A DNA stretch of 64,000 nt, taken from Candidatus Obscuribacteraceae bacterium (lineage in GTDB: Bacteria; Cyanobacteriota; Vampirovibrionia; Obscuribacterales; Obscuribacteraceae). The DNA lies in the NCBI GenBank assembly GCA_044229845.1, contig JBGASG010000006.1:64001-128000 (forward strand), given 5' to 3'. The translations under genes and the position numbers were made by a program. The notes under the pieces are model-generated. The model searched no databases. It had not been told where the DNA came from and saw nothing but the letters and a program-made list of their open reading frames with translations. Positions 2,523 to 30,600 of the stretch are shown here, piece after piece; position 1 is the stretch's first letter, and each line of letters opens with the position of its first letter.

Positions 2523-4288
2523 GGCGGCTCTAAAGCCGTCAACTACACAGTCCAGAGCGGCGACACGCTGAATTCCATCGCTTCGGGATTGGCGACTAAC
2601 ATCAATGCCGACACCGACCTCCAAGGGATAAGTGTGTCCGCTGTTGCGGTGACACCCACATCTGGTGTCTCAGTCGTCAATCTGCTCTCTGCATCAAAGA
2701 ACGCGACCACATATGCGAAGTCGTTGAGCGGTGGCGCTACGGAGACAATTGCCCTGAGCAAGAATGTCGGGGTGTCCCAAGCGACCTTCAATACGGTCAA
2801 TGAGCTAACCGGCATCTCGGCCGGTGGCAATGCCCACTTCGAGGAAACACTGACAGTCCGGTATTACCGGTGACTGTCGCAGGCAATGCTGTCGACATGC
2901 CGACATCTCAAAGTTTTTCGGGGAATGCCGCGCTGTCGTCGGGGAGTAACAGTATCAGCGTGAGCGCCACTGCTGGCGGCGGAAGTGGTACAACTACAAA
3001 TACCCACAAGCTAGAAGTGGTGGGCGCTGGCAGCCAGACGCTGACCTACGACGACAACGGCAACCTAACCAGCGACGGAACGAATTCCTTCGCATGGGAC
3101 GCCGAAAACCGACTGATTCAGATTACTTATCCCAGTTCGGGAAATAAAACCGAGTTTGTGTACGGGCCAACTGGCGGCCGGATGAAGATCGTCGAGACGG
3201 TATCCGGGAGCATAACGAGCACTAAGCAGTTCGTCGGTCCTGAGGAGCGCGATGCAAATGGCGATGTTTCTACGAAGTTTTTCGCAGGTGGACAGGTAAC
3301 CGGTGCATCACTTTTCTACTACACGAAAGACCAGTTAGGTTCAGTCCGCGAAATGTGCGACGACACTGGCGCTTCTCAAGCGTTATACGCTTTTGATTTG
3401 ATTGGGAGACCTACAAAACTAGAGGGTGCAGAGGAAAGTGATGTCCAGTTTGGCGGAATGTACATACATCGAAGAAGTGGTTTAAGTTTAGCTTCGTATC
3501 GAGAGTTCAGCGCAAAACTTGGACGATGGCTGAGTAGGGATCCCATCGGCGAGGATGGCGGCTCAAACCTGTATGCGTATGGTGCGAACGATCCCGTTGG
3601 TTCTGTCGATCCAAGTGGTCTGCTAAAGTTCTGCCTGTCTGCCCAGAAAGGACGGGGGCTGGCAGGGTTCTTAGGTTACCGAGGGTACCAAGGTCCCCCA
3701 ATTGGACCCCCCGTATACCCCCCGATTGACACAGGAGGCAGCTCCGGTTCTGGAGACGGTGGCGGAGGTGGAGATCCTTCATTCGGTCCCGTAGCTGGTC
3801 CCCCCATCAAAATACCAGGTAGCAATGGGCAACCCACATGGCACTGGGGTCCAATAGGAAGCGCTCTCTCTCAAATGAGTAGCGATGACGCCGCAACCAC
3901 TGGTTTCTATACGGGCATGGCGACCTTAGGAGGAGCTTTAGCAGGCGGCATGATGGCTGCTAGCAGCGGTGGCGGTGGCGGTGGCGGTAGCTCAGGTCCC
4001 ACATTCATTGTAACTCCAGGCGGTACAGCCTATCCCGTGCCAACAGGCGCAACGGGTCCCGTGCCGACTTTCGTCCGCACGGGCGCAACTGCAGGTTCTC
4101 GAAACGGTAGTGCTTTTGTCGGCGGCAGGGGAGGAGCAAACGGACAAGTCCGAACAATGAGAATCATGGACCCGAAGAGAGGAGCCTCTAGGGGATATAT
4201 AAAGTACGAAAACGCAAACGAGCAAGGCGTCAACCCTTATACTGGTCGAACTGGATCAGATGCCGAGACGCACTTCATGATTGATTAG
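2523..4288 (+). pseudogene. 5'-truncated, frameshifted rhs copy: Rhs core plus a putative nuclease-type C-terminal tip
   Basis: 2523-3144 matches the reverse complement of 28598-29220 in the main rhs. One base is missing near 2841 (CACTTCGAGGA vs CACTTCCAAGGA). Core motifs YYTKDQLGSVR, GRWLSRDPIG and DPSGL are present. The tip ends RIMDP..GYIKY.N..Q.VNPYTG...HF. Confidence 0.8.
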
Positions 4289-4300
4289 GCGGTGTGCTGA

Positions 4301-4777
4301 ATGACTCACGACAATCTGGCGCAACTCCCCCCCGCGGAGATTTGCTACCGAATTCTTGCAGGCAAAGAAATATCGGGCGTTCGATTCGGCTATCATCTCT
4401 CGGTGATAGTGGACGGATTACACAAGGGTTTTTCGAACACTGTCAAAGGCGAGTCCTTTGTCACCCTTGCTGGCCCATGGGTACTTTCTAAAGCAAACGG
4501 GGTGGATAACTGTCCAAAAGCTACATCATCTCCGGGCTTGAGCGCTGCCGATCAATTGATGCAAATTTCTCAGGTCGCCGAAAAGCTAATTCTGTCCGTT
4601 GAGGTGAGTGCGGACTCTTGTGACTTGCTGATCCATATAGAGGACGGATGGTTGCTGACGGCCAGCGGCGATGGTGATGAAGGGTGGCACGTAGGACTCC
4701 GGGATCAATTTAGCCTCTCCGTAAGGGAACGCGTGATTACGTCTCTGGATCTGTGTCTGCCTGGTGATGACGCATGA
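4301..4777 (+). CDS. Putative immunity protein for the upstream Rhs tip
   Basis: 158 aa ORF starting 12 bp after the Rhs stop. Function is inferred from position only. Confidence 0.6.
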   Translation: MTHDNLAQLPPAEICYRILAGKEISGVRFGYHLSVIVDGLHKGFSNTVKGESFVTLAGPWVLSKANGVDNCPKATSSPGLSAADQLMQISQVAEKLILSVEVSADSCDLLIHIEDGWLLTASGDGDEGWHVGLRDQFSLSVRERVITSLDLCLPGDDA

Positions 4778-5033
4778 TCTCTGTGACCGGCGATGCAACG
4801 CTCACTCCAGGTAAGCGAAGCATAGTTCCCCAATGGTCTGCACTGCCTGTGTGCTTCTTTATAATCGTCCTTCATTTTTCGCGAACAGCCGGACAAAGAG
4901 AAAGGGAGGACCACCATTTTTGAAAGCGGTATCAAAGCTTTGGCACTTTCTCGCAATTGGGCATCTGTGCACGGTTCAGCGGGACCACTCAACATGCCGC
5001 CGCTGCGCGCGCGTAAGTGCAGGTTAAAGAGGG

Positions 5034-5162
5034 CACTACTCACAGCCCGAAACCCGCAGAGAATGGGCGTTTATCCGTATACCAAAAATGCAGAAGTGAT
5101 ACCAAACCCACTACTCACAGCTCGAAAGAGCCAGCCAGTCAGAGTTTATCCGTATACCAAAA
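5034..5162 (+). repeat. Bipartite direct repeat with a 75-bp period
   Basis: CACTACTCACAGCYCGAAA at 5034 and 5109; GTTTATCCGTATACCAAAA at 5069 and 5144. Confidence 0.85.
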
Positions 5163-5550
5163 TCTCACTTCACCCCTGATCAGCACCCCGCAAAAACAAA
5201 TTCGCGGTCCCTTGTTGCCTGAATGTTCCCGACCGTGCCTGGTACTGCCCGTGTGGTCCGCACCGTAGACGGTGTCGTATTGCGCAAGCATCGATTGACC
5301 GGCTATATTGAGCAAATGCGATAGAAACGCGCCCGCAGACGGAAGCCCGCGTGTTCCGGTCGCAAATCTCTCACGCAAGCATCGAACAACGGTTGCTTAG
5401 CTCAACGAGTACGCGTTCCTCCCCGGGAACTTGCCTGAAGGACAACCAAGAATTCTGCGCGTCAGGAAGCAGGGGTTCGCACAAGCCCTGGACTGATTCC
5501 ATACCAGACGCCGTCACTCGCTCTCAGCGACTCCACAGCGACATTAGCGC

Positions 5551-5700
5551 GCGCCTGCGCTTCATGCCCGGCACCAGCCGAGCGGCGGAGCCCTAGTGTC
5601 AAGGCCAAGCCCCTGCGGGGTGGCTCCTTTCGTCGCCAGCCTTGACACCAGGGACCTGCTCCGCCGCTATTCAGGCATGAGGGCATGGCGACTTGGCGCG
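5551..5700 (+). promoter_or_regulatory. Conserved long hairpin upstream of integrase (candidate ssDNA promoter), copy 1
   Basis: Nested inverted repeats: TCATGCC/GGCATGA, AGCGGCGGAG 5581/CTCCGCCGCT 5659, GTGTCAAGGC 5596/GCCTTGACAC 5639. TTGACA lies in the stem. Homologous copies precede the other two int genes. Confidence 0.6.
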
Positions 5701-5831
5701 CGAATTTTTCCGCTAACCGGAGCCTGGAAACGCACAAGCCATCAGCCTTCCGGAACATAAACTTTTTTCCGAACTGCATACATTGTGCTTACACAACTTT
5801 TTTGCCCACCCCAAATTTCAAAGGCGGACCG

Positions 5832-7043
5832 ATGCCCAAATTGACCAAATTGTTCGTGACCAATGCACCGCTCCCACAGAAGGGACAGATTATCTATCGC
5901 GACACCGCGGTAGTCGGCCTGGGACTTCGCGTTACGCCCGCAGGGTGCAAAAGTTATGTGGTGGAAGGCCGGGTGAACGGTGTGTTCCGTCGCATCACCC
6001 TCGGCAGAGAGAATGAGCTAACTCCCACCGCCGCGCGCAAAAAAGCCCAGAAGGTTTTGACCTCGCTGGCAGCCGGCAAAGATCCGATTGTCGAAAAGTC
6101 GAAGAAGAAGATTCGAGGGGCAACCTTGCGGGAGGTTTTCGAGCATTTCCTCACCGTGCGCAACCTGCGCCCGAACACCATGCGTACCTACAGAAATATG
6201 CTGCCCCGCTGTTTGGGTGACTGGCTCGATCTGCCGGTGGTGGCAATCACAAGAGAAATGGTCGAGCAGCGTCACATGGACCTGCGCCGCACCACCAGGC
6301 AGGGCACATCTGGCGAGGCCCAGGCGAACACAGTCATGCACGTCCTGGGTACGCTCCTTAACTTCGCAGCTGTCAACTACGAAATCGACGGCAAGCCAAT
6401 CATCCTGGTCAATCCAGTCAAGCGCCTTTCCAATAATCGCCGCTGGTATCCCGAACGGCGCCGACAAACAATTATTCCTGACCACAAACTGCCTGCCTGG
6501 TACAGCGAGGTCATGTCGCTGAGGCAGGAAACTGTCAGGGACTACCTGCTGCTATTGCTGTTTACCGGATTACGCCGCAACGAAGCAGCCACCTTGCGAT
6601 GGGCTGATGTCGATCTTGAGGCGAAGGTCCTCACGATCCGTTCGGAGATAGCAAAGAACGGGAACGAGCACCGCTTGCCACTAAGTGACTTTCTCGAAGA
6701 CTTGTTGAAGCGAAGACACGCATGCCGGGGGGACGCAGAGTTTGTGTTTCCTGGACGCGGCAAGAAGCCGCACATCATAAGTCCAGATTGCTTGATCGAA
6801 CAATTAGCAGAGAGGATCAACTGTCCGTTCACGCCGCACGATTTGAGGCGAACGTTTCTGACGGTAGCCGAGAGGCTGGCACTTTCATACGTGGTGCTGA
6901 AAAAACTCGCAAATCATTCAGGAAAGAACGACACGACCTTTGGTTATGTCGTGGTGGATGTCGAACGACTGCGCGAACCCATGCAAAGAATCACGAATGA
7001 ATTTCTGAGGCTGTGTAAGCCAAATACCGACGAGGAAGCCTGA
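5832..7043 (+). CDS. Tyrosine integrase with N-terminal arm-DNA-binding domain
   Basis: Motifs TGLRRNE, KN, HDLRRT and NHS..TFGY give the R-K-H-R-H-Y catalytic set. The start MPKLT is shared by all three paralogs. Confidence 0.95.
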   Translation: MPKLTKLFVTNAPLPQKGQIIYRDTAVVGLGLRVTPAGCKSYVVEGRVNGVFRRITLGRENELTPTAARKKAQKVLTSLAAGKDPIVEKSKKKIRGATLREVFEHFLTVRNLRPNTMRTYRNMLPRCLGDWLDLPVVAITREMVEQRHMDLRRTTRQGTSGEAQANTVMHVLGTLLNFAAVNYEIDGKPIILVNPVKRLSNNRRWYPERRRQTIIPDHKLPAWYSEVMSLRQETVRDYLLLLLFTGLRRNEAATLRWADVDLEAKVLTIRSEIAKNGNEHRLPLSDFLEDLLKRRHACRGDAEFVFPGRGKKPHIISPDCLIEQLAERINCPFTPHDLRRTFLTVAERLALSYVVLKKLANHSGKNDTTFGYVVVDVERLREPMQRITNEFLRLCKPNTDEEA

Positions 7044-7175
7044 ACGCCAATGGCGCATTTTTCCGAATCGCATACAATGAGCTTACAAGCCTTTTGAAAC
7101 TCGACGTCGCCGCAAGCGAAGACACCGACACCACGACGCATTGGCACCACCGGCGATGCGAGCGTTTTCAAACAG

Positions 7176-8084
7176 ATTACTTATCCCAGTTCGGGAAACA
7201 ATTCGGCTTTTACATATGACCCGCACGGAAGAGTGGTCAAAATTGTGGAGACTGTGGCGAGCAGCGTCACCAGCACAAAACAGTTGATTAACCTTGGATT
7301 CCGATTTGCCGAGGAGCGGGATGGCTCTGGAAGTCTTACCAGGCAGTTCTTCCGAAGAGGTCAGATCGTTGGAGCTACCAATTATTTCTATTTCAAAGAT
7401 CAGCTTGGCTCGATCCGGGAAATGACCGACGCAGCTGGTTCGGCAGTGTCAAGTTACACCTTCGATCCTTTCGGCAGGGTTGCGAGCATCACCTCCACGG
7501 TTGAGAGTGACCTGGGCTTCGGCGGGTACTACCGCCATCGACGGAGTAATCTGGACCTCGCATTGTTTCGAATATACAGCGCTGCACTTGGCCGCTGGAT
7601 CAGCAGAGATCCCATTCGAGAAAAGGGCGGCTTGAACATGTATGCATACGCGGGAAATATGCCGGTGCGAAAGTTAGATCCGACGGGATTGAGCTGTAAC
7701 AACTTCGACGACGATGAAAACTACCCTCCTGATGAAGACGATTGGTTGCCTTGGCTGGAGATTCCATCTTACACAACAGATCCACACATGGAAGGGGTTT
7801 TTCAGCTTCCTAGACCGAAAAGACGAATCCGTCTACGTTCATTCTTTAAGCCCTGCAAACCGGATAGTGATCCGCAATGCTGCGAAGAAAACCGTGTGGG
7901 CTGCGGATCAGTGGCGAGAATCGTCAATGAAAAGTTCGACTTGAGTCTGGATGAGTTTCAAAAGTTGATTGATTGTTGTGACAAGGCATTTAAGGAATGC
8001 GAGGAGCATTACCGCAGTGGGACAGAGTACCCCCAACATCCCTGGGAAGATTGCTTTAAGGAATATGTGATTTTCACGAAATGA
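7176..8084 (+). CDS. Orphan Rhs core plus Cys-rich C-terminal tip cassette
   Basis: Frame is open from the core (ITYPSSGNNSAFTYDPHGRVVKIVE). Contains YFKDQLGSIR, GRWISRDPI and DPTGL. Confidence 0.85.
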   Translation: MTYPSSGNNSAFTYDPHGRVVKIVETVASSVTSTKQLINLGFRFAEERDGSGSLTRQFFRRGQIVGATNYFYFKDQLGSIREMTDAAGSAVSSYTFDPFGRVASITSTVESDLGFGGYYRHRRSNLDLALFRIYSAALGRWISRDPIREKGGLNMYAYAGNMPVRKLDPTGLSCNNFDDDENYPPDEDDWLPWLEIPSYTTDPHMEGVFQLPRPKRRIRLRSFFKPCKPDSDPQCCEENRVGCGSVARIVNEKFDLSLDEFQKLIDCCDKAFKECEEHYRSGTEYPQHPWEDCFKEYVIFTK

Positions 8085-8265
8085 TTTTCATGCTGCACCC
8101 AGATGCGTTGTTCGCTCAAACAGAGCTGACCGCTCAAACACGGACTGACTATCGCGGTGCACATAGCGCTACATATAACTACACTTGTTCCTGAAAGCGT
8201 TAGGCAGCACAATTGAACGTAGAACTGATTCCCATCTCTCTTCTCAACGCCAAAGGATTTCAAAG

Positions 8266-8844
8266 ATGGATGAAGAAACTTTCCGGAAGGTTCTTAGGAA
8301 TGGCTTCGTGCTAAGGGAACAAGCATTTGCTGAAGTTGGTCAGATTTCGCGAGGGCGCAAAGCTTTAGATTGTGCCGATCAGTTGCTAAACTGCGACGAT
8401 AAGTTGACTGGTTCCCAGCTTTTGGAAGTGCTTGTCGAGTTTACGCCCTTAGCAATAGCTTGTGGTGACTTTTCGCGAGCCTCAACCTACGTAGCGATGC
8501 TTGTGCAAATATCTCAGGAAAACACACATATGTGTCACTTGGCTTATACTGCCTGGATATTTAACGGTATGGTACTTCTCGGACAGGGAAGAGGCGTGGA
8601 AGCTGTAGACTCGTTGAACAGAAGCTCCCTTCCTCTGTCGCCAGACGGGAGTTTATTAGTACCCAGCAAACGCCTGCTCAACTTTTTACGCGAACTGCTG
8701 CATTCGGAAGCTGCCTTGATGGCGCATTCCAGAGAGGCAGTCGTTGGATTTGTCAGCAGATTAGTAGAAGGCATAAAAGATGAGCCAGGGAGACCAAACA
8801 AGCAGAACTTCTTATTATTCCTCGAAGAACTACAGGGAAGCTAG
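8266..8844 (+). CDS. Putative immunity/partner protein, helical (TPR-like)
   Basis: ORF 8185..8844 with likely ATG at 8266. Follows the Rhs tip. Confidence 0.55.
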   Translation: MDEETFRKVLRNGFVLREQAFAEVGQISRGRKALDCADQLLNCDDKLTGSQLLEVLVEFTPLAIACGDFSRASTYVAMLVQISQENTHMCHLAYTAWIFNGMVLLGQGRGVEAVDSLNRSSLPLSPDGSLLVPSKRLLNFLRELLHSEAALMAHSREAVVGFVSRLVEGIKDEPGRPNKQNFLLFLEELQGS

Positions 8845-8976
8845 AACGAAGCCTGGCGTCGAACCACCAGCGGCACCACGAGCCTTCCAAAATCAAGTCG
8901 CGAGCCAGAGCGACGGTCAACCTACCTACAGCATGTCCGTCATTGTGTTTCTTAGCCCTGTGAGCTACGGCGAACG

Positions 8977-9347
8977 GCAAGATAAAAGGATGATTTCAAC
9001 CACCCGAAACGCGCACCACTGGCGGTGTTACACGGTTTCGCCAATGGTATCCGCGAATGCCGCATGCCTAGATGGGAAGCCCTGTCTGACTCGAACGGCA
9101 TTCGCGCATCGGTAGCGCGTTTCCGGCATCTCTTCGGAGTCTTTCTCATTCTGTCGTGGCATCGGTTTGGGCTCAGAGAATTAGCGGATTTCACTTCCAG
9201 ACGCATGTTCCTAGCTGACCCTATATGTGGTGGCATTGTGGAACAACGCGCCCCAGTGCGCGTCACTGGCTACTGACGAGCTAACTTCGCTCGAACACCT
9301 CACTCTCCGTGAGGCATGGCAAGCCGCAGGCTTGCTTCAACAATTGC
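8977..9347 (+). repeat. Conserved non-coding module with an oriT-like site; inverted copy of 12361..12730
   Basis: GCAAGATAAAAGGATGATTTCA (reverse complement contains TATCTTG^C), palindrome at 9013-9028, and CTATATGTGGTGGCATT...CTTGCTTCAACAATT are all shared. Confidence 0.85.
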
Positions 9348-9456
9348 GTGTGCGTCCGGTAGTCCACGTCGTTGGCAATTTTGCGTCGCCGTGGTTTGCT
9401 AATTGCACATGCGGCGCTGCCAGTTCGAAGCTGCGAAGAGCGCCTGCACTGAGAGT

Positions 9457-9915
9457 ATGCGAGGGCAAGGCGTGGCACGAGCAAGAAAAGCGGATAGGCA
9501 CCAAGACGGCGACGTGCTCCTGACACGGAACGAAGCTGCCGAGTATCTCGGCGTCTCTCCCAATACGTTGGCGATCTGGAGTTGCACGGGGCGGTATGAC
9601 TTACCCTTCGTGAAGGTCGGGCGGCTTGCAAAATACCAGAGGTCAACTCTCGATCAGTTCTTGCAGCGCCGCACCAAGCACTGGAACGGGACGGAAACGG
9701 GACGCGCGGACCGTCCTTCCAAGCCCCGCGAGGTTCGGTCTCAGGAAGTCGAATTCCGTGAGGTGCGGCTGGTCGATCCTCGCAGGACCGACATCGTACC
9801 GTCATCCAGCAGCGTGTTGGAGATCGTTCTACCAAGTGGTATCACTCTTCGACTACCGGGAGGATCTTCTCCAGACTTCCTTGCTTCGGTAATCGCTACA
9901 TTGGAGAAAGCGTAG
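9457..9915 (+). CDS. tnpA: IS66 TnpA-like protein with an excisionase/MerR-type HTH N-terminus
   Basis: LLTRNEAAEYLGVSPNTLAIW...PFVKVGRLAKY (Xis-like) followed by the TnpA-like tail LEIVLPSGITLRLP. Stop overlaps the tnpB start. Confidence 0.75.
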   Translation: MRGQGVARARKADRHQDGDVLLTRNEAAEYLGVSPNTLAIWSCTGRYDLPFVKVGRLAKYQRSTLDQFLQRRTKHWNGTETGRADRPSKPREVRSQEVEFREVRLVDPRRTDIVPSSSSVLEIVLPSGITLRLPGGSSPDFLASVIATLEKA

Positions 9916-10322
9916 TGTTTAATTTGTCACCATCGGTGCGGATTTTCGTTTGCACAAAGCCTATCGACATGAGGCGTTCGTTCGACGGGCTATTCGGTCT
10001 TGTTCAATCGCTAGTGCATCAAGATCCATTTTCTGGATCGCTCTTTCTCTTCCGTAGTCGACGCGGCGACTTCATAAAAATTCTCTGGTGGGACCTCGAC
10101 GGCTTTGCCATTTTTGCCAAGCGCCTCGAAGTCGGAACATTTCGTTTTCCGGAAGTGCGGTTCGTGAACGGCGAGTATGAAGCAATCGAGATGGAACGAT
10201 CTGACCTTCTCCTGCTTCTAGAGGGCATCGACACCGATTCTGTGAAGAGATTGAAGCGCTACCGCCGGGAAAGCCCGGATCGAGCCAAAAGCGCCACCCC
10301 AAAAGTACCCGCCATGCGGTGA
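9915..10322 (+). CDS. tnpB: IS66 accessory protein TnpB
   Basis: PIDMRRSFDGL, LFLFRSRRGD.IKILWWD.DG...KRLE.G.F. Confidence 0.95.
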   Translation: MFNLSPSVRIFVCTKPIDMRRSFDGLFGLVQSLVHQDPFSGSLFLFRSRRGDFIKILWWDLDGFAIFAKRLEVGTFRFPEVRFVNGEYEAIEMERSDLLLLLEGIDTDSVKRLKRYRRESPDRAKSATPKVPAMR

Positions 10323-10504
10323 GCGATCAGACCAGTGCCACGGGCTGGTACTTTCGAGAAATGCGGAGTAAAACATAATAGAATTTTCCAAGACGCTGGC
10401 CGGCAATGTCGCCACCATTGGCGGTGCAATACAGATCAGTCAGATCTAAGCTGCAAAATACGGTCCCGAGTAGTACCATATACGGTATCACTCAGGTATT
10501 TGCC

Positions 10505-12049
10505 GTGCCAAAATCCGAAGATTCCGAAAATACGCGCCTCAGAAAAGAAAATGCCCGGCTCCAAAAGTCGCTGGACCGCATGGAGAAGCAGCTCCAAGAA
10601 GCCAATGACGCCAACAAAGAGCTGCGCGCGCTCATGAAGGATCTCCAGGAAAAACTCGACATCCTTATCGTCCAATTCAAAAAACGGAATCGCAAGGACT
10701 TTGGCAACAAGACTGAACGACACAATCCGCGGCCGGCACTCGCTGTCGAATTGTCTCCTCTGACTGCTAAGGAAAAGTCGACTCCAAAACCACGCAATCA
10801 CATCAAGCACATTCTCTCGCAGAACCTTCCCCCTGAGATTGTTCCGCACACCGTTAAGCCGGAAGATGCAACCTGTCCCTACTGCATCGTTGACACCGTT
10901 TTCGTCGGCACCGAAGTGACCCACCAGTTGGAGCGCTTGACTCAAACGCTTAAACATCTGCAGCATGAGCAGGAAGTTCGGGCGTGCCCGAAGTGTAGGA
11001 AGTACATCGTCACCGCAGAAAAACCTTGTTCGCCAATTCCCGGCAGCTACGCCGGACCGGGACTGCTCGCGGACGTCTGTGTGAACAAACTTGCAGACGG
11101 GCTTCCAAACTACAGACAGGAGAAAAGATACAAACGCGAAAGTGCCACCATACCACGGTCCACTCAAAGTGATTGGATGCTGGCTGCCTCGTTTACTGTT
11201 GAGCCTCTGTACGATCTCGTTACTCGACGCCTGCTCCTTTCTCGCGTAATACAGACGGACGACAGCGAACTTAAGGTCCAGGACCGGAAGCACAAGCGAA
11301 AAATGCGCAAAGGCAAAATGACTGTTTACCGCGGGGATGAGAATCACAGGTTTGTAGCCTTCGATTTCTCTCCCGATCAAACCTTCGCCAGGAACATTGC
11401 ATTCCTCGAACAGTTTGTCGGCATCGTACAGGCCGACGCCGCAAAGGGCTTCGACAAGCTGTACGAGGATGGCACCAAAGTCGAGGCCGGTTGTAACGCC
11501 CATTCGCGCAGGAAGTACTACGAAGCGCTGGTGATTGATCCTCAAAGCTGCAACCCGATCCTGGACATCTATCACGCACTTTACGACATCGAAGCGGAGA
11601 TCAAGACACGGAGTCCTGCGGAGAAGCTGGCTGAGCGACAAGCACGATCGAAGCCACTCGTTGGGCAGCTTCACGCCCTGGTTCTCTCTCTTAGTGAGAA
11701 ATTGAACCCTAAACATCCAGTCATGCGCGCCGTCCTGTACACGCTCACTCACTGGCAGGCGCTCACTCGCTTTCTCGAAGATCCTGCCATCAATATCGAC
11801 AACAACGCCGCCGAGCGAGAAATCAAAGACTTCGTGATTGATCGAAAGAATTTCCTGTTCGCAGGCTCGGACGCTGGCGGTAAGTCGATTGCCATTCTCC
11901 TGACTCTCATTGCCTCTGCGAAGCGCAACAAGATCGACCCACGTGCATACCTCACCGACGTGTTTACGCGCATCAACTCCATGAAGACCAGCGAGCTTGA
12001 GCAGCTTCTTCCGGACCGGTGGACGCCAAACCAAAACAAAGTCTCCTGA
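10505..12049 (+). CDS. tnpC: IS66 transposase TnpC
   Basis: Coiled coil, CPYC/CPKC zinc finger, QTDDS, GCNAHSRRK, IDNNAAEREIK, RKNFLFAGS, LLPDRW. GTG 10505 is the likely start (ORF from 10406). Confidence 0.95.
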   Translation: MPKSEDSENTRLRKENARLQKSLDRMEKQLQEANDANKELRALMKDLQEKLDILIVQFKKRNRKDFGNKTERHNPRPALAVELSPLTAKEKSTPKPRNHIKHILSQNLPPEIVPHTVKPEDATCPYCIVDTVFVGTEVTHQLERLTQTLKHLQHEQEVRACPKCRKYIVTAEKPCSPIPGSYAGPGLLADVCVNKLADGLPNYRQEKRYKRESATIPRSTQSDWMLAASFTVEPLYDLVTRRLLLSRVIQTDDSELKVQDRKHKRKMRKGKMTVYRGDENHRFVAFDFSPDQTFARNIAFLEQFVGIVQADAAKGFDKLYEDGTKVEAGCNAHSRRKYYEALVIDPQSCNPILDIYHALYDIEAEIKTRSPAEKLAERQARSKPLVGQLHALVLSLSEKLNPKHPVMRAVLYTLTHWQALTRFLEDPAINIDNNAAEREIKDFVIDRKNFLFAGSDAGGKSIAILLTLIASAKRNKIDPRAYLTDVFTRINSMKTSELEQLLPDRWTPNQNKVS

Positions 12050-16622: not shown

Positions 16623-16626
16623 GGCT

Positions 16627-22148: not shown

Positions 22149-23123
22149 CTAGGTTTCTGATCTATTGATTAACAGGTCCAGTATCCAGTTTGGCGGATCT
22201 GGATGCCCTCCATCATCTGGATGGTTCGTCCAATACTCCACCCATTCTATCGCGCGAATCGCGTTTCCGGATTCGGGCAAAAGATCCGGACGATACTCAG
22301 GGATCTGCGCAGAGGGGAGATCTTCTGGAATGTCTGCAGGAGGTTCTCCCTGATGTTGCGATGAATCTGGATACTCTGATTCTAGGTCCCAAAATCCACG
22401 ATTATCTGTCGAATGGAACGGTCGATCAGCGCTCTCGCTCCAGCTGTCAGCTTTACGATCGTCTCCTTGCTGTTCCATCGTCTCTCCTGTGAATGGGTCA
22501 GATATCTGTGCCAAGATTCGAATATTGCGTGTCCCGGAACCAAACTGACCAAGATCGGGATCAGGTCTGTCTGAGTCCTTTCTCGGACAAGGCCACCACA
22601 TGAAATAGGTCCCCGATGGGTCGACAAAGCTAACCGGATTACTGCGTGAATATGTGAATAGGTTCAGACCACCCCGTTCTGCGATGGGATCACGGTTGAT
22701 AAACCTCCCCAGTCCAGGGCTGTACGCCCGTGCAACTGTAAGATTTAAACCGCTTCTGCCGTGCGCGTAGTAGCCAGCAAATTGAAAATCGCTGTCCTGT
22801 CCGCCCTCAAGTCTATTGGCCCGTCCGAATGGATCAAAGCTGTAAGCTGCCTGAGCATCGCCGTTATTGTCGGTCATGGTTCGTACGGAGCCGAGGTGGT
22901 CTTTTGCGTAGAAATAGTTCATGCCGCTGTTGATTTGTCCTCGTGAGAAGAACTGCTTCGATTGGCTTCCACTGCCATCGCGCTCCTCGCAGCGGTTGTT
23001 TGAGCACCATATGTGCTGCTTCGTGCTGGTCATGGTGCTCGCCACGGTCTCCACAATCTTGACCATTCTTCCGAATGGGTCATATGTGAAAGCCGAATTG
23101 TTTCCCGAACTGGGATAAGTAAT
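22149..23123 (-). CDS. Orphan Rhs core plus acidic C-terminal tip cassette
   Basis: Rhs homology starts exactly at the core (ITYPSSGNNSAFTYDPFGR). Contains KDHLGSVR, GRFINRDPI and DPSG. Confidence 0.85.
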   Translation of the reverse strand: MTYPSSGNNSAFTYDPFGRMVKIVETVASTMTSTKQHIWCSNNRCEERDGSGSQSKQFFSRGQINSGMNYFYAKDHLGSVRTMTDNNGDAQAAYSFDPFGRANRLEGGQDSDFQFAGYYAHGRSGLNLTVARAYSPGLGRFINRDPIAERGGLNLFTYSRSNPVSFVDPSGTYFMWWPCPRKDSDRPDPDLGQFGSGTRNIRILAQISDPFTGETMEQQGDDRKADSWSESADRPFHSTDNRGFWDLESEYPDSSQHQGEPPADIPEDLPSAQIPEYRPDLLPESGNAIRAIEWVEYWTNHPDDGGHPDPPNWILDLLINRSET

Positions 23124-23264
23124 CTTTTTGGATCGGTGTGCACCGCGCGTGGTGCTTGTACGACACAGGTGCCGAATTTTGAAATTGCGTTGTAAATAGC
23201 TTTCCGACGACTGTCGCTGCATTGTCGACAACAAAGAAAAATACGCGGTGCTGAAATACGGCTT

Positions 23265-24491
23265 TTACTGCGCTTTCTCGGGGTGTGGTGAACTTTCAGA
23301 AGCTTCTTGGGACACTCTCGCCTTACACAGGGTTAGAAGCTCGTTGGTGGCTCGCAGTCTCTCCACATCTACTACAACATAACCGAAGGTGGTGTCATTC
23401 TTGCCGGAATGGTTCGCCAGCTTTTTCAGAACGACATAAGAAAGCGCAAGTCTTTCTGCTACCGTGAGGAAAGTTCGCCTGAGATCGTGAGGCGTGAACG
23501 GACAACCGATCTTTTCCGCGAATGCATCTATCGCGCAATCTGAGCTTACCATGTGGACTTTTTTGCCACGTCCAGGAAACACATATTCGGCGTCTCCGCG
23601 CCCTTCGTATCGTCGCTTCAGCAGCTCTTCCAAGAAGTCACTCAATGGAAGTCGATGCTCTTTTCCGTTCTTTGCGATCTCTGATCTAACGGTGAGGACT
23701 TTGGCGTCAAAGTCAACGTCTTCCCAGCGCAAGGTGGCAGCTTCGTTGCGGCGCAATCCGGTGAACAACAGAAGCAGAAGATAGTCCGTCACTGCTTGAC
23801 GCTTCAGCAGCATGACCTCTCGAAACCACTCGGGCAGCTTGTGGTCTGGAATTATTGTCTGCCGCCTGCGCTCTGGATACCAGCGGCGATTCTGCGACAG
23901 ACGCTTGACGGGGTTATATATAATGATGGGTTTTTCGTCTATCTCGTGGTTTGCGGCGGCGAAGTTGAGCAGCGCTCCGAGCATGTGCATCACGGTGTTC
24001 GCTTGTGCCTCTCCTGACGTTCCTTGCCTGGTGGTCCTGCGCAATTCGGCATGGCGTTGCTCGACCATGTCCCGCGTGATTGAAACCACCGGCAAGTCGA
24101 GCCAGTCTTCCAGGCAGCGCACGACCATATAGCGGTAAACCCGCACGGTGTTCGGCTTGAGATTCCGGACTGAGAGAAACTGTTCCAGAATTTCGTGCAA
24201 CGTCACTCCGGTGATCTTTTTCTTCGCCTTCTCCACCATCGGATCTTTACCGGCGGCCATCATGGCTTGCAGTTTGCGCGCCTTTTTCCGCGCCGTGGTT
24301 GGAGTCAGGGGTCCACTTTTGCCCAGGGTGATTCTTCTGGCGACTCCGTTGACCCGAGCTTCAACGACGTACGTCTTGCTTCCGGGCGTCACCCGTAACG
24401 CGAGCCCGACAAGCACCGTGTCCCGATAGATTTTCTGGCCTCGCTCCGGAGGCTCCACTTCATTCACAAACTTTTGGGTCAATTTGGGCAT
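23265..24491 (-). CDS. Tyrosine integrase, paralog 3
   Basis: Full catalytic set. A short in-frame gap follows the Tyr (ERLRATNE vs ERLREPMQRITNE). Confidence 0.95.
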   Translation of the reverse strand: MPKLTQKFVNEVEPPERGQKIYRDTVLVGLALRVTPGSKTYVVEARVNGVARRITLGKSGPLTPTTARKKARKLQAMMAAGKDPMVEKAKKKITGVTLHEILEQFLSVRNLKPNTVRVYRYMVVRCLEDWLDLPVVSITRDMVEQRHAELRRTTRQGTSGEAQANTVMHMLGALLNFAAANHEIDEKPIIIYNPVKRLSQNRRWYPERRRQTIIPDHKLPEWFREVMLLKRQAVTDYLLLLLFTGLRRNEAATLRWEDVDFDAKVLTVRSEIAKNGKEHRLPLSDFLEELLKRRYEGRGDAEYVFPGRGKKVHMVSSDCAIDAFAEKIGCPFTPHDLRRTFLTVAERLALSYVVLKKLANHSGKNDTTFGYVVVDVERLRATNELLTLCKARVSQEASESSPHPEKAQ

Positions 24492-24624
24492 TTCGTCGCC
24501 TTTGATTTTGGGGTGGTATGTAAAGTTGTGTCGTCACTATGTCGACGACTTGAGAAAAAGTTGCTTCCGCTATGGCTGATTGGATGGGGCTTTCCGACGT
24601 TTACTGCTTTTTGATTTCAAAAAT

Positions 24625-24761
24625 CCGCGCCAAGTCGCCATGCCCCCATGCGGAATAGCGGCGGACCGGGTTCCTGCTGTCAAGGCTGGCTCCGAAGGAG
24701 ACACCCCGCAGGGGTTTAGCCTTGACAGTAGGGGTCCGCTGCTCGGCTTCAGCCGGCATGG
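24625..24761 (-). promoter_or_regulatory. Conserved hairpin upstream of integrase, copy 3, with IS110 inserted at its outer edge
   Basis: CTGTCAAGGCT..AGCCTTGACAG and GCGGCGGAC..GTCCGCTGC. Confidence 0.6.
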
Positions 24762-24880
24762 AGATTTCCCGTCAAATGTCAATCTGGTGAACGCGCGCAA
24801 ACAAGTTCGCCAGTTGCGAAGCAACTGGCACCGTATTCAGTGCACTTCGATGTCGAACTAAGACGCTTTGAAGTGTGGGT

Positions 24881-25762
24881 TTACGTGGTTTCGTGCTTTC
24901 CTTGCGCAAGAAGGCGTTCAGAGAATTCTCTGATCTGGGGATTGTGTACTCGCGCGGCGCGTGCCGGCATGAATAAAGCTCCCCTAACTGCCGCACTTCC
25001 TCGTTTAGAAATACGATCCTTTTCTCTCACTGATATTCCTGATGCGTGTTTTCGGCTGGTCAATCCGAGAAAGCATGCTAAAGACCGACTTGAACGAAAG
25101 CGCCGGAAATCAATAAGCGTGAGTAGGGTGACCGCTGATCTGTCAGCTATTCCAGGGATCGTGCACAAGAGCGTGAAATCGTTGCTCAGAACAGGGTGTT
25201 GACCGATTAGCTCTTTGGCCCGCCCCAGGGTTTGCTCTAAATTAGACTCCGCCATCGCCAACTCGGCTTCGAGCTGCTGTTTCACAAACTTGGAGCGGAG
25301 TCCACATGCAAGCTGGCATCGGATTGCCACAGTTCGCTTTGTCAGCGAACGAATCAATACTACCGTGTCTCTCAGCTCCCACTCTAAGTTCGTCTTTGGC
25401 TGCCACTGAGGAAGTTTGTCAGAACGCTCTTTGCAGTATTCTGCGAGCAGGTACGCTGCCTTCCGATCAGAACGAATGCGAATCTCGTGTGATTCAGCGT
25501 ACTTCGAAAACTTGAGCGGCTGCGCCAAAAAGACGCGCGTCTTGCGTTTATGAAAATACTCAGCAACGATTTCACCGTATCGCCCGGTCGGTTCGATGAC
25601 TAAGTCGATACTCTGAATGCCGTTCTCTTCAAGCCATTTGACACAGGCTCGAAGTCCATGAGCATTTCGCGCAAAGCGCTCGGAAAGTGCTTTACCATTT
25701 GGTGGTAGAACGCAAATGTCAAACCATGGTTCGGATATATCCGCACCAGCTGGAACCTTCAT
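24881..25762 (-). pseudogene. IS110 recombinase/transposase, C-terminus disrupted
   Basis: GADIS, IEPTGRY, RSDRKAA (the fourth acidic residue reads Ala), TIPGIA, LGL..SG.S, ISKRG. Stops right after GKH, without the usual A.xRK.L helix. Confidence 0.8.
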
Positions 25763-25784
25763 AGAACCTCTTTCTATTGTAGTG

Positions 25785-25955
25785 TGCGGATCGAAGCAGC
25801 GGCCTTATCCGAAGCTCTTATACGGTTTCACGAACGTGACCAAAGATTTCCCTCGGGTTAGACTATTGCTGCGGTGAGAGGAGAGTCGCAAATCTCCATA
25901 TGACAGGTTTTGCACTGGGCGCAGGCTCGGTTTACTCTCCTCTCTCCGATCTCTC
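25785..25955 (-). ncRNA. Putative IS110 bridge RNA with target-binding and donor-binding loops
   Basis: Two stem-loops whose loops contain GCCTGCGC, ATGGAG, GGGAAATCT and TATAAGAG, matching the four junction halves. TTGACA lies upstream at 25988-25983. Ends are approximate. Confidence 0.75.
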
Positions 25956-26163
25956 AATAATTACCTAACCACATATCAAAGCTGTCAAGTTCAATATAAG
26001 AGCGCAGGCGCGCTACCATCGGGATGGATTTTTGGCGGATGGATTTCCAGCGGCGTGATGTGGAACCGCGGAACGTCAGGCTCCTTGCCGGATTTGAGCC
26101 ATTCGAATCGCCCATGCGCAACGTTGAGTGCGCGGTACGCTTTCGGTGGCCTTCTCGGGCTTG

Positions 26164-26559
26164 CTATTCCTGGTCCAGATGCTCCTGGTCATCTTTGAGA
26201 TGGCTGGAGGTCTTTTGTTGCAGAAATTGCCTCGCGAAGCTTTGCGCCAATTGCTTCAGTGCTATTTGGTCCTTCTCATCAACCTCGTACAGAGCGAGCT
26301 GCTCGGTGAAGAACCAGACCATCGAGATGGCTTTGCTCAGTTTGATCATCCAGCCAGCAAATCGGTCTTCCATTCGCCGCAGACGCTTCTCTACGTAGGC
26401 GAATTGGGAGTTGGTGGCTGCCTCGGCCCGGGCGACAATTCCGTCGCGGACCAATTCACGCACCATCTCGGCGGGGGTGAGCCTGTTCGCTTTCGCCAGT
26501 CGGGTGACTTCTTCTGCCATCTCCTTTGGGAAGCGAACACAGAATTGGGGTAAACGCAT
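26164..26559 (-). CDS. Ribbon-helix-helix protein (MobC/CopG-like relaxosome accessory candidate)
   Basis: QFCVRFPKEMAEEVTRLAKANRLTPAEMVRELVRDG fits a beta-helix-helix pattern; lies next to the oriT-like site. Confidence 0.7.
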   Translation of the reverse strand: MRLPQFCVRFPKEMAEEVTRLAKANRLTPAEMVRELVRDGIVARAEAATNSQFAYVEKRLRRMEDRFAGWMIKLSKAISMVWFFTEQLALYEVDEKDQIALKQLAQSFARQFLQQKTSSHLKDDQEHLDQE

Positions 26560-26794
26560 TCATACCTCAGAACACGCGCGCGTTGCGCTTGGACATTGAT
26601 GCAAGCAAGGCGCTTGCGGGGCTCCTCAATGAGAGCGAGGAGAAATGACGAGTTAACTCATCAGTTTCCGTTGACGCGAGAAAAGGCGGTTGGTTCCCAG
26701 AATGCCACCACATATAGTGTCGGATGGGCATCGCTATCGAGGTGTAGGCAGGGACAGGAAGAAAAAGGCGGAGTAACGGTTCCTCAAACGCACC

Positions 26795-26931
26795 AGCGAT
26801 GGGCGACTGCCGTTCACCGCACTCCTGGAGCCAGTTGAGGGTACCCGGCATTATGTGGGGTACTTTCTGGAACCATGGCAGGGCACCACTCGTGGTGCAC
26901 GCGCCAAAATGAAATCATCGCTTTATCCTGC
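26795..26931 (+). promoter_or_regulatory. oriT-like module with nic motif TATCCTG^C at 26924-26931
   Basis: Perfect palindrome GCACCAC-TC-GTGGTGC at 26883-26898, followed by GAAATCATCGCTTTATCCTGC. Confidence 0.55.
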
Positions 26932-27240
26932 GTTCCGGTCCGAACTACTGAGGTGCGATAAAATTCAAAGCCAAGAGTCTGCAATGTTGTTGCAGCGGAT
27001 TCTGAGTTGGTCGCTTTGCCGCAGGCGCAGACTCAGTCGAACTCACGGCACTGCGTGATCGGCTGAAGTAAGGAAATCCTTCGTATTGATTCACTGCGAG
27101 CGCGGCGTGTGGTCATTTGGGATCTGTCGCTCTCCTCCATAACAAAACGTCCCCTACAAAGTCCGCGACGAACGCACACTGCGTTGCGTGCAGGCGCGAT
27201 AGTAGCGTCGGGTGATTCACAGGGTGCAGGCTAAGGCACC

Positions 27241-27678
27241 CTATCTGCGTCCCAACAGCCGCATCATAGTCGAACGAATGACAGAGGCATCGACGCCACC
27301 AAGCGAACTTTGATTTGGATCCCAGTTTGTCAATGCCAGCAGCAAGTGTTCGGGACCAATAACCCTCATGCCCAGTTTGCTGGCTTCGACGTAACTAGCA
27401 CGAATCAAACTGAGCAGCCGAACGGGTCTGCCCATGCTCTGCCCAACGCTGTCTTCCGCGTAGATTTGCTCTGAGGAGATGCGCAAGAGGCTCAATACTT
27501 TTGCTGCAGTGCATGTGCCTTCCTTAGATATTCCGCCCATGATATCGCGCAATTGAGCATTCGGAGTTGCTGCATGTTCAAAAGCAAGTTTCAAAACGGT
27601 TCGAGCTTTTGGCGTAAGTCGAATCGGGCTCGCCTTTACTGATTCTTCTTGCATAGTGGCTCGTTGGGATAGCCCCAC
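27241..27678 (-). CDS. Clp N-terminal (Clp repeat) domain protein in the immunity position
   Basis: RLTPKARTVLKLAFEHA and EASKLG..IGPEHLLLAL. Starts 6 bp after the rhs stop. Confidence 0.7.
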   Translation of the reverse strand: MGLSQRATMQEESVKASPIRLTPKARTVLKLAFEHAATPNAQLRDIMGGISKEGTCTAAKVLSLLRISSEQIYAEDSVGQSMGRPVRLLSLIRASYVEASKLGMRVIGPEHLLLALTNWDPNQSSLGGVDASVIRSTMMRLLGRR

Positions 27679-27684
27679 TCCTCT

Positions 27685-30600
27685 TTATTCAATGCCATAA
27701 GTGTCCATGCATTCCTGGACGCAATCATCACGTGTTTCCTCGGCTTGTCTTAGCTTAGCGCGTTTCTCATTGCCTTCGGGCATTGAGTCGACCTCTTTCA
27801 GATCAATTCGGTACCAATCATCGCAATCCTTGCAGCAATCGTCAAACGGATCCTTGTCCGGTTTTTGTTCTGGAGGATCATCGTGCCCGTCTGGCGGAGG
27901 CGGTCCTCCTCCTGCTCCGCCCATAATGACGGTCTCATCTGTCGGCGTCACGGGTGGACCGTCATCTTCGTCCTCGTCCTTCGGGCATGGATTAGGTGGT
28001 TGCGGATTAGGCGGTTCAGGCACAGGTCCCGGAGGCTGACTCTGATTGAATTGCTGCCAGAGCCATAGCAAAATGTCCATTAGGTCCATTTTTCTGATTA
28101 CGGCATTACCGCTTGGGTCCCTCCACATAGTCGGGCGATTCCCAACATATCGATATAGATTGAGGCCGCCCCTTTCTCCGATGCGATCGCGCGAAATGAA
28201 TCTACCGATCTTCGCGTTGTAAGCCCGCGTTCGAGTAAAGTTGAGCCCACTACGGGCATGCAGATAGTAACCGGCGAACTGAAAATCGCTGTCCTGCATA
28301 CTCTCAAGCGTCTTAGTCCTGCCAAAGGGATCAAAGCTATAAGAAGCCTGCACATCGCCGCTGTCGTCCGTCATTGTCCAGACGGAGCCAAGATGGTCCT
28401 TGTTGTAGAAATAGCTTGTTGAGTTATCGATCTGCCCGCGCGAGAAAAACTGCTTGGAGGCGTTTCCGCTGCCGTCGCGCTCTTCGCACCGAGTACTACC
28501 TGACCAAATATGCTGCTTGGTGCTGGTGACGCTGCTCGCAACGGTCTCCACAATTTTGACCATTCTTCCGAATGGGTCATATGTGAAAGCCGAGTTATTT
28601 CCCGAACTGGGATAAGTAATCTGAATTAGGCGGTTTTCGGCGTCCCATGCGAAGGAATTCGTTCCGTCGCTGGTTAAATTGCCGTTGTCGTCGTAGGTCA
28701 GCGTTTGGCTGCCAGCGCCCACCACTTCTAGCTTGTGGGTATTTGTTGTTGTACCGCTTCCGCCGCCGGCGGTGGCGCTGACGTTGACACTGTTACTCCC
28801 CGACGACAGCGCCGCGTTCCCAGAGAAATTCTGAGATGTCGTCATATCGACGGCATTTCCTGCGACAGTCACCGGCAGTACCGGTCTGTCGGTGTTTCCT
28901 TGGAAGTGGGCATTGCCACCGGCAGAAATGCCTGTCAGTTCGTTGACCGTATTGAAGGTCGCTTGAGAGGCCCCAATGTTCTTGCTCAGGGCAATCGTCT
29001 CGGTAGCGCCGCCACTCAGCGATTTGGCATACGTGGTCGCGTTTTTGGACGCAGAGATGAGGTTGACGACCGAGACACCAGATGTCGGTGTCACAGCAGT
29101 GGCGGACACACTTATCCCTTGGAGGTCCGTGTCGGCATTGATATTAGTCGCCAGTCCTGAGGCAATCGAATTCAGGGTGTCGCCGCTCTGGACCGTGTAA
29201 TTGACGGCTTTAGAGCCGCCGGACAAGCCGGCGTCGTAGACCGTTATTGTGAGTACATTGCCTGTTGTTTTGGTCCCACCAATGACAGCGGTCACCGTGC
29301 CGTTCGCTGGAAGGTCCCAGAGAATGGTTTCGGTTGCGCTGGTACTTCTCGACGGAAGGTAGGTGGTAGCATTTCGCGAGACAGATGTGACTGTTAGCAC
29401 AGTTCCTGATGATGAGGCAGAAACGCCTACAGCTTTCAGATCCGAGTCGGCGTTGAGTGCCGATGCGAATCCGCTGGTTATGGACGTGAGGTTGTCTCCG
29501 CTTTGAACTGTGTACGAAACGCCCTTAGACCCGCCGGATAGTCCGGCATCGAAAACCGTCAGAGTTAAGACATCTGCTGTTGTCTTGCTTCCGCCGATGA
29601 GGGCGTTGACGGTGCCATTCAAGCTTGGCCCGAGAGCGACAGTTTCCGTACCAGCGCCCGTGACCGACTTCGTGAAGGTCGTGACATTTGGCGAGAGTGA
29701 CTGAATGGCGATCACCGGTCCATTGGATGTCGCAGTGATGCCGGCTCCCGAGAGACTCCCGCTTCCGTTGATGGATGCCGTCAGAGCCGTGGCAATCGAG
29801 GTCAGCGTGTCGCCACCCTGGACTGTGCGGCTAACGCTCGTAGAACCACCGCCGAGGGCTGGATCATGAACGGTTATCTGAACGACGTCGCTCGTGGTTG
29901 GCGTGCCCCCGATAGTGGCGTTATGCAGAGCTGCATTCACGCCGAGGCTGGCGGTTTCTGTTGAACCACCGCTCAAGCTGGTCGCGAAGGTAGTCACGTT
30001 AGGAGACTTCGAGCGCAGCGTCACCGTGGTCCCGCTCGAAACAGCATCGATTCCAACCGATTGGCAATCGGAGTTCGCCGTTATCGTTGCAGCCAGATTG
30101 GCGGCAATCGTCGTTAGCGTGTCTCCAGAGAGCACTGTGTAAGCGACCGCTTCCGTACCTCCGCTCAATCCGCTGTCAGTTGCGGTGACGGTGATGACGT
30201 CACTAGTGGTTTTGCTGCCGCCGATCACGAGATTCTGGACCTGGCTCGTTTGCACGTCAGTCCGGTTGGCTGCGGAGTCGTAGGAGAAGAAGTGCTGGTC
30301 CGCGAATGGCGCGGGCAACACGCCCTTACCACTTACCGCTGCCGTCAGTTGACCTGCAGCGTCGTAATCCAGACCGAATCCCACGTGCCGGGTTTTCTGC
30401 TGCTGCATCCAGCGAGTGATTTGCCCCGTTGGATCTTGCGCATAGTTGAATTGAGACAATGCTTGCGAATTCGGATCAAGATTCCTTATCTCGCGTAAGC
30501 GTTGATCTTGATCGTTGCCGTACCAATCAAATGCAGTTGTTTGACCATTCGGATATGCGATACTGGCTAGTCGGGATTGTCCCTTTGAGACCCCGACGCC

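Follow-up and report, generated by a model that had tools for sequence, protein, structure and literature searches.

Rhs proteins have an established architecture in which a variable toxin tip is followed by an immunity gene. Orphan-tip arrays occur widely behind rhs, cdiA and comparable genes and are usually put down to homologous recombination, while the integrases that occur there are unexplained. The present analysis concerns two such arrays, with integrases standing between the tips, in a stretch of 64,000 nucleotides from Candidatus Obscuribacteraceae bacterium (positions 64,001 to 128,000 of contig JBGASG010000006.1, assembly GCA_044229845.1), in the following called the window. In total, the window contains three complete units of 4.1-5.5 kb and two terminal tips. 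The units share one layout: a short core repeat is followed by a shell end of approximately 170 aa, a variable tip, a partner gene, a structured element, an integrase gene and a conserved arm.

Array B, located on the minus strand, starts with the resident rhs gene (27685..34918), which comprises two open reading frames (ORFs), 31979..34918 with Peptidase_C39, RHS repeat and LysM domains and 27685..32130 with RHS repeats and LysM. The RHS/YD repeat family PF05593 scores 122.8 bits on the latter and also matches ORF 31979..34918 and the tip ORFs 2870..4288 and 22149..23234; no PAAR or VgrG-type domain appears among the Pfam matches to the two resident ORFs. These two overlap by 152 nt, for which a frameshift, an assembly error and a true two-gene arrangement are all candidates. 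The rhs shell lies upstream of position 28622, and from there down to 27685 extends the current tip, i.e. about 171 aa of shell end and the variable C-terminal part CT1. At the transition lies a core of 25 nt (28598..28622), which encodes (Q)ITYPSSGN and resembles a left attachment site (attL). This core opens cassette B1 (5497 bp, 23126..28622), in which the shell end with CT1 (to 27685) is followed by a partner gene (27241..27678), by further parts described below and by an integrase of 408 aa (23265..24491) with Arm-DNA-bind_3 and Phage_integrase domains and conserved R..HxxR..H..Y columns. Between the integrase and the next core lies the arm (L, 23126..23264), with the motif GACAATGCAGCGACA (23212-23226) and a palindrome of 16 nt (23140-23155). 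The core behind this integrase (23101..23125) resembles a right attachment site (attR) for B1 and at the same time an attL for cassette B2 (4119 bp, 19007..23125). In B2 the core is followed by the shell end with CT2 to 22149 (DPSGT), the partner gene 21805..22131, a conserved segment X (21492-21213), ORF 20858..21223, the structured element (20452-20611), the integrase (19136..20404) and the arm (19007-19135). The array closes with the terminal tip B3 (18399..19006), whose core is cut to 12 nt (18995-19006); a DPxG motif is absent from B3, and its match to Rhs_assc_core reaches 21.6 bits, below the cut-off of 32.5. The order predicted originally, rhsN-core-CT1-partner-int-core-CT2-partner-int-core-CT3, was thus found on the minus strand, with the correction that CT3 (18399-19006) is degenerate.

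Array A is a second, shorter array of the same design on the plus strand. It begins with a 5'-truncated rhs shell fragment (2466..3119), which shares 88% DNA identity with 28623-29277, and continues with cassette A1 (4054 bp, 3120..7173). The latter consists of the core (3120-3144), shell end and CT to 4288 (DPSGL), partner gene (4301..4777), structured element (5540-5702), integrase (from the MPKLT start at 5832 to the stop at 7043) and arm (7044-7173), with the arm motif TACAATGAGCTTACA at 7073-7087. Two 54-nt tandem repeats, 80% identical and 75 nt apart, are situated between the A1 partner gene and the structured element (5034-5162, plus strand). Behind A1 follows the terminal unit A2 (7174..9348), with its core (7174-7198), shell end and Cys-rich tip to 8084 (DPTGL), a partner ORF (8185..8844) and a copy of segment X (8850-9348) that is ended by an element of the insertion sequence (IS) family IS66.

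The cores are the most precise feature of both arrays. The 12-mer AGATTACTTATC occurs exactly at 3120 and 7174 on the plus strand and at 18995, 23114 and 28611 on the minus strand of the window, and a sixth site at 30479 matches with one mismatch. By chance 0.16 occurrences are expected versus the five seen, and none of 100 shuffled sequences reached six. Four of the five core sites extend to the identical 25-mer AGATTACTTATCCCAGTTCGGGAAA, which has no further match in the 5.16-Mb genome even when three mismatches are allowed, while the copy at 18995 has only the first 12 nt in common with the other cores. The copies at 3120 and 28611 are part of rhs reading frames (..ENRLIQ|ITYPSSGN), and those at 7174, 23114 and 18995 are located 130, 139 and 129 bp past the stops of the integrase ORFs 5685..7043, 23265..24491 and 19136..20404, respectively. 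When all five copies were aligned with 200 nt upstream and 300 nt downstream per site, the upstream sequences fell into two unrelated classes, rhs (two copies, ..WDAENRLIQ) and integrase tail (three copies). Alignability of all five begins exactly at AGATTAC and continues in frame through ITYPSSGN..FDPFGR, i.e. the Rhs homology behind the three integrases starts in frame at the ITYP codons. Direct core repeats bracket the units, with the integrase at one end (28598-28622, 23101-23125 and 18995-19006 in array B; 3120-3144 and 7174-7198 in array A). The original prediction had given the five 12-mer positions and the 25 bp shared by four of them, had placed two copies inside rhs coding sequence and had put the other three approximately 130-140 bp behind related integrases, where rhs homology would begin abruptly and in frame; all of this was recovered.

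The same boundary recurs outside the window. Three further integrases with 74-84% identity are encoded in the genome on contigs C13, C22 and C1, and a variant core, AGATCACTTATCCCGG, is found in an rhs gene on C13 as well as behind the integrases on C13 and C1. Moreover, 106 related loci were collected from scans of public genomes and metagenomes with an integrase alignment, and tblastn searches of these loci and the genome were made with three queries, namely shell end (ITYP to DPxG), shell and integrase. The shell end gave 40 matches, 38 of which begin at query residue 1 (ITYP). Among these 38, an rhs match stands directly ahead in 13 cases and a short rhs fragment was recognized by eye in one more (C22:403464); the other 24 copies have no rhs ahead. 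All 24 carry AG directly ahead of the ATY codon, and 19 of them have an integrase on the same strand within 3 kb upstream. The closest loci are titled Melainabacteria or Obscuribacterales. A spread across phyla was considered and dropped, as the contigs titled 'Bryobacterales' (L017 = G010 C7) and 'Oculatellaceae cyanobacterium' (L021 = G014 C40) were placed in the window's own family; hence the design is confined, as far as searched, to one family.

This invariance bears on the usual explanation, according to which the tips were displaced by homologous recombination and the integrases are passive cargo or remnants. Such crossovers should leave rhs fragments of variable length, whereas 24 of 24 copies start at one nucleotide. 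Classical orphans with variable rhs fragments do exist in the same genomes, beginning at aa 482 (C1:1061120), 515 (C18:334018) and 638 (L015:15147). The piece of rhs core of variable length that defines them stands ahead of the tips at C18:334018 and C1:1061120, both in the genome analysed here, and ahead of none of the 24 copies. In favour of homologous recombination, the 110-120 nt past the core are 90-92% identical between some copies and could drive gene conversion. A second sharp boundary, just behind the partner gene, where homology starts in five copies, is likewise in line with homologous recombination, and so is the mosaic identity between cassette B1 and the unit on C13, which are 95% identical over 2 kb behind the partner gene, 80% identical in their integrases and unrelated in their tips. 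Taken as a complete account of the arrays, homologous recombination nevertheless appears unlikely to us, and the integrases themselves provide the next arguments.

All three integrases of the window score over the cut-offs for PF00589 (Phage_integrase) and PF13356 (Arm-DNA-bind_3). In an alignment of seven integrases, the columns R247/R248, H335, R338, H361 and Y371 (R, HxxR, H, Y) are invariant, and these we take to be the catalytic residues, given what is generally known of the tyrosine integrase family. Passive integrases would be expected to decay; the catalytic columns, however, are intact, and pairwise comparison of the five complete integrases of the genome gave ratios of nonsynonymous to synonymous divergence (dN/dS) of 0.01-0.09 in the nine pairs for which dS is defined. 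Judged by these ratios, the integrases of the five units are under strong purifying selection. The dS value amounts to 0.36 for the pair C13/C22 (dN/dS 0.01) and is at least 1.5 or beyond saturation for all other pairs; the units are therefore lineages of old descent, maintained separately from one another, and did not arise by recent tandem duplication.

The link between integrase and tip is limited to one clade, which is another point against passive carriage. A FastTree tree was calculated for 121 distinct integrases (tblastn matches of at least 330 aa and without stops, identical sequences dropped). Seventeen integrases are tip-linked, having a shell end no more than 3 kb downstream, and all of them belong to one clade of 23 rows (support 92), itself nested in a clade of 30 rows (support 100). 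Outside the 23-row clade, linkage was found in none of 98 rows, 79 of which have at least 800 bp of downstream sequence; one row inside the clade has too little flank to judge. The original prediction had called for a search of related genomes for this integrase clade next to rhs cores, and these 17 integrases, all in a single clade, are its outcome. Orientation is constant, the integrase always reading toward the core, and the gap measures 129-185 nt in nine copies and 400-497 nt in the four copies of L021, a conservation of direction and spacing that also speaks against passive cargo. A sister group of integrases with approximately 45% identity (C1:1048432-1049598, L023, L025, L125 and L126) stands behind rhs tips without a shell end close downstream, and a second copy of the local core was not found downstream of the sister integrase on C1. 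Transfer RNA (tRNA) genes beside more distant integrase homologues were considered as a clue and proved uninformative, with a tRNA directly upstream of the integrase at only one of 22 loci.

The DNA between integrase and core is conserved as well. The arm motif KACAMTG-N4-K[A/G]CA, approximately 100 nt ahead of the core, is present in all seven arms of the genome and has 28 matches in the complete 5.16 Mb, seven of them in arms. A conserved arm of this kind is a further feature that homologous displacement of the tips does not account for. The half-sites of the motif covary (TACA..TACA or GACA..GACA) and are candidates for paired or direct-repeat binding sites, for example of the integrase arm-binding domain. 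The 16-nt palindrome GCACCAC-N4-GGTGC, which is placed 15-18 nt ahead of each core, was rejected as a specific component of the site because it is iterated throughout the genome: GCACC-N6-GGTGC occurs 274 times in 5.16 Mb versus 8-25 times for spacers of 2-5 or 7-10 nt. Examples in the window are 7144-7159, 21313-21328, 23140-23155 and 26883-26898; integrase-linked cores each have one copy 15-18 nt ahead of them, and every partner gene is closely followed by another.

Cores of the same array agree, and those of different genomes show differences at synonymous positions. In arrays L021 and L015, the core in the rhs gene and the core of the cassette are identical at 33 of 33 and 32 of 33 nt, respectively, and in the window 25 nt are identical in four copies despite the divergence of the units. 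Since these identities persist against diverged integrases and against synonymous core differences between genomes, the core seems to be constrained as DNA, which points to selection on its nucleotide sequence.

Taken together, we consider it probable that the units are cassettes which integrate site-specifically, joining a new tip to the resident Rhs protein and displacing the old tip downstream. Each unit of 4.1-5.5 kb would be a minimal integrative element, whose circular form would carry an attachment site (attP) composed of the arm (L) behind the integrase gene and a core of 16-33 bp, the core doubling as the start of the replacement rhs 3' end. The integrase, a tyrosine integrase of the P4 type, would recombine the core of the circle with the identical core of the resident rhs gene, at the (K/Q)-ITYP codons within one of the final YD repeats, approximately 100 aa ahead of the Rhs-associated core domain. 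The predicted product is an in-frame fusion of the resident shell with a shell end of approximately 170 aa including PxxxxDPxG and with the new tip, behind which the presumed immunity gene of this tip would follow. The resulting order would be rhsN, core, new tip, partner gene, integrase, arm, core, old tip, and this agrees with the arrangement observed. The old tip would have lost its start and would lie promoterless behind the integrase, still with its partner gene and with a regenerated core ahead of it. As the core would be regenerated on both sides, repeated integration would build tandem arrays, and recombination between cores could excise units and expose an older tip again. Integrase-linked cores would be equally good targets, so that the unit order is not necessarily chronological. 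What we infer from this arrangement is the circular form, recombination at the core by the integrase, the sequence of events, the toxin and immunity functions and any spread to other cells.

Each unit brings more than a variable C-terminus, since the Rhs-associated core domain (TIGR03696) exceeds its cut-off in four of the five tips (62.9-76.9 versus 32.5 bits) and the motif P....DPxG is likewise present in four of five (DPSGL, DPTGL, DPSGT and DPSGN); its own shell end and the autoproteolysis motif thus come with it. By analogy with the established Rhs architecture, position suggests a toxin role for the tips and an immunity role for the partner genes. For the A1 tip, the best values in a protein atlas (0.79-0.82) are at noise level, and the names of nearby clusters (MafB, Tox-HNH-EHHH, Ntox21) are a lead only.

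Evidence for movement was sought directly in sequencing runs. The stretch or part of it was present in 20 runs, 16 of which are DNA runs; these come from nine metagenome studies (sludge, bioreactor, digester, biofilm and fermentation) and contain 71-97% of the sampled words of 18900-28700, and one of them may have been what the assembly was made from. Four runs were compared with 12500-32400 at the level of assembled contigs. Their contigs match the unique parts of the window without differences and end at repeats, for example at 23088/23096 and 28585; the core is not bridged because the contigs stop there, and no joint at a core was seen in them. Three candidates for rearrangement, a joint 20604>26124, a loose end at 28609 and a link 26721>12500, were traced to a paralogous locus on C1 and to the repeat 12420-12490/26651-26721 and were discarded. 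Two low-depth joints in run X12 (19696>23875 and 28697>21715) are unexplained and were not used. The exact 25-mer core had no match in metagenome contigs, and species-representative genomes were too distant for a comparison of occupied and empty sites.

Several observations weigh against the integrative cassettes proposed here. No circle junction, excision scar or alternative fusion of rhs and tip was found in the contigs of the four runs, which end at repeats, and the order of the units in the array is taken from the assembly alone. The mosaic identity of B1 and the C13 unit implies that the module of tip and partner gene is also exchanged homologously between conserved flanks. At C13:49728 (49700-49760), non-rhs DNA adjoins a full arm with approximately 20 nt of core, and beyond it lie ORFs that, judged by sequence features, are presumably IS3-like and group II intron-like; this site could be a secondary insertion site or the end-point of a deletion. 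Five of the 22 well-flanked integrases of the linked clade (L016, L019, L043, L127 and L134) have no shell end downstream, and the arm-plus-core motif was not found at these five. In an all-against-all comparison of the cassette ORFs, no second shared protein such as an excisionase came up; besides the integrase and the shell end, the matches were spurious ORFs over the structured element. Close relatives of the integrases were not found on viral contigs (best 40%) or plasmids (best 42%), and therefore no vehicle for transfer between cells is known. Finally, neither tips nor partner genes match a Pfam or NCBIfam toxin or immunity family, and the search for CT1 homologues among longer proteins returned CT1 itself alone.

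The IS elements in both arrays raise the possibility that site-specific insertion belongs to the past and that the array is now fixed and inactive. An IS66-family element (9349..12115, plus strand; ORFs 9403..9915, 9915..10322 and 10406..12049) is situated at the junction of arrays A and B, exactly between inverted copies of segment X (8969-9348 and 12736-12359), the segment past the partner gene, that end the two arrays, and their inverted arrangement could be the product of an IS66 rearrangement. Cassette B1 is interrupted by an IS110-family transposase (24881..25762), and further IS66 copies lie within the units on C13 (46314-49114), C22 (405740-408499) and C1 (1064310-1067035); the arrays have been rearranged by both families. 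The decayed core and tip of B3 and a deletion of five residues near the C-terminus of integrase B1 fit a fossil state, too. On the other hand, purifying selection on all five integrases, including the pair C13/C22 with its dS of 0.36 and dN/dS of 0.01, argues for continuing function, and four cores are still identical over 25 nt. An array that is now inactive seems improbable to us. The other parts of B1 are segment X (26931-26347, minus strand) and two small ORFs (26567..26851 and 26164..26559, minus strand), one of which (26164..26559) has a weak ribbon-helix-helix (RHH)/Arc match.

Every rhs-linked integrase in the window is preceded by the structured element of approximately 160 nt (24624-24780 and 20452-20611 on the minus strand, 5540-5702 on the plus strand), and other copies in the genome are C13:42215-42371, C22:412832-412988 and C1:1064010-1064170. 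It is located approximately 130-300 nt upstream of the integrase and is predicted to fold as a three-way junction; for 12 copies, RNAalifold predicted 44 pairs, ten of them with compensatory double changes, whereby G-U intermediates are almost absent. A search of window positions 1-36000 against Rfam gave no match at E-values up to 1. A covariance model also located the element upstream of further integrases of the clade. Of 61 genomes searched, 22 (including that of the window) contain weaker relatives, which do not adjoin tip-linked integrases, and one genome has 14 copies beside IS256-type transposases. An integrase control RNA, a folded DNA site and a repeat that draws insertion sequences are the open candidates for its nature.

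Hairpin-rich elements in every unit recall the attC sites of integrons, and a platform similar to integrons or to the rAID-1 system, in which one active recombinase shuffles integrase-less tips and the other integrases are redundant, has to be weighed. A few units do lack an integrase, among them L021:4428, which has neither an rhs ahead nor an integrase within 3 kb and shares 17 nt of arm with its neighbour. However, 19 of the 24 units without rhs ahead have an integrase of their own, these integrases are divergent lineages that are each under purifying selection, and the structured element lies 1.3-1.5 kb away from the homology boundary. Models of integron integrases score 22.2 and 16.8 bits versus cut-offs of 265 and 435. 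The hallmarks of an integron, i.e. a single intI, an attI with promoter and integrase-less attC cassettes, were not found, each unit having its own integrase. Such a platform is hence very improbable.

In relation to the original prediction, the concept of cassettes that swap the tip is strengthened by the boundary that is invariant in 24 of 24 copies, by the conserved arm, by the link to one clade, by purifying selection and by cores matched to their array. The locus turned out to be less clean than drawn, with a second boundary and homologous exchange, rearrangement by IS66 and IS110, the decayed CT3 and no family match for toxin or immunity protein. A more far-reaching version, which we put forward tentatively and hold to be possible but not the likelier outcome, regards the units as autonomous tip-swapping elements, i.e. 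minimal mobile DNA whose sole cargo is a new Rhs toxin end with its antidote. The integrase would then have evolved for in-frame insertion into coding sequence, every insertion would yield a functional in-frame chimeric toxin, the pair of toxin and antidote would lock the element in place, and through recombination between cores a lineage could change back and forth among its stored tips. The element of approximately 160 nt could serve as a control or transfer signal, either as an RNA switch or as a folded site in single-stranded DNA.

Directly behind the decayed tip B3, the minus strand encodes genes for a class I lanthipeptide (12780-18402), namely LanB (13605..16622) and LanC (16627..17892). 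Ahead of them lies ORF 17917..18402 (161 aa) with a Cys/Ser/Thr-rich stretch and GP repeats, and after them ORF 12780..13466 (228 aa) with an HExxH motif.

With regard to the integrases of orphan arrays, the locus offers a concrete mechanism, in which a defined core inside coding sequence is combined with a defined arm and with an integrase for every unit. If it is confirmed, weapons could be re-armed by site-specific integration, and a mobile element could pay for its insertion by upgrading the target gene and not just by restoring it. Precise in-frame fusion within a protein-coding target could also make such an integrase a useful tool. The hosts are non-photosynthetic relatives of cyanobacteria from sludge and bioreactor metagenomes, in which interbacterial antagonism is almost unstudied.

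How do these cassettes compare with known systems? Islands and prophages with integrases of the P4 type insert at the 3' end of their target, in most cases a tRNA gene, for which they bring along a substitute 3' end. The cassettes share with P4-type islands the integrase architecture (Arm-DNA-bind_3 plus Phage_integrase), the position of the integrase next to the attachment site, the direct core repeats that flank the unit, the carriage of the part of the target gene downstream of the crossover and the possibility of tandem arrays. In contrast to these islands, the target is a protein-coding toxin gene and the replacement end is a new tip, not a faithful copy. The unit measures only about 4 kb, has no replication, transfer or phage genes, and one presumed arm of its attP is coding sequence. 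By this analogy, the locus would work like a gene-restoring integrative island in which the restored gene end is the payload.

The original prediction had known of no described system with one integrase per cassette. No published attachment site inside rhs and no unit with one integrase per tip was found in open-access and bioRxiv literature, but integrases in orphan arrays had been mentioned before. Ruhe et al. 2016 (PMC4927057) describe intervening transposase and integrase genes as frequent in orphan arrays and suggest site-specific recombination, and Steele et al. 2017 (PMC5727410) note integrase-like genes near Rhs loci of bee-gut bacteria and leave their role open. As in the displacement arrays of Rhs and of contact-dependent growth inhibition (CDI), pairs of tip and partner gene are stacked in the same orientation downstream of a full-length gene, with integrases between them. 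In those descriptions, the displacement arrays contain variable pieces of the core gene, with homologous recombination as the working model, and define no site, arm or pairing of integrase and cassette, whereas here homology starts at a single invariant nucleotide and every unit contains an integrase of its own at constant spacing. The third point of reference is the rAID-1 system of Bacteroidales (Ross et al., bioRxiv 10.1101/471110), in which one XerD-like recombinase stands at the head of arrays of immunity genes. In common with rAID-1 and integrons, the cassettes combine a tyrosine recombinase with an array of genes for interbacterial conflict and with repeats between the units. However, in those systems one recombinase precedes a series of integrase-less cassettes, and rAID-1 stores defensive immunity genes and rebuilds no toxin gene, whereas here every cassette has its own integrase and its insertion would yield an in-frame fusion with the resident toxin gene.

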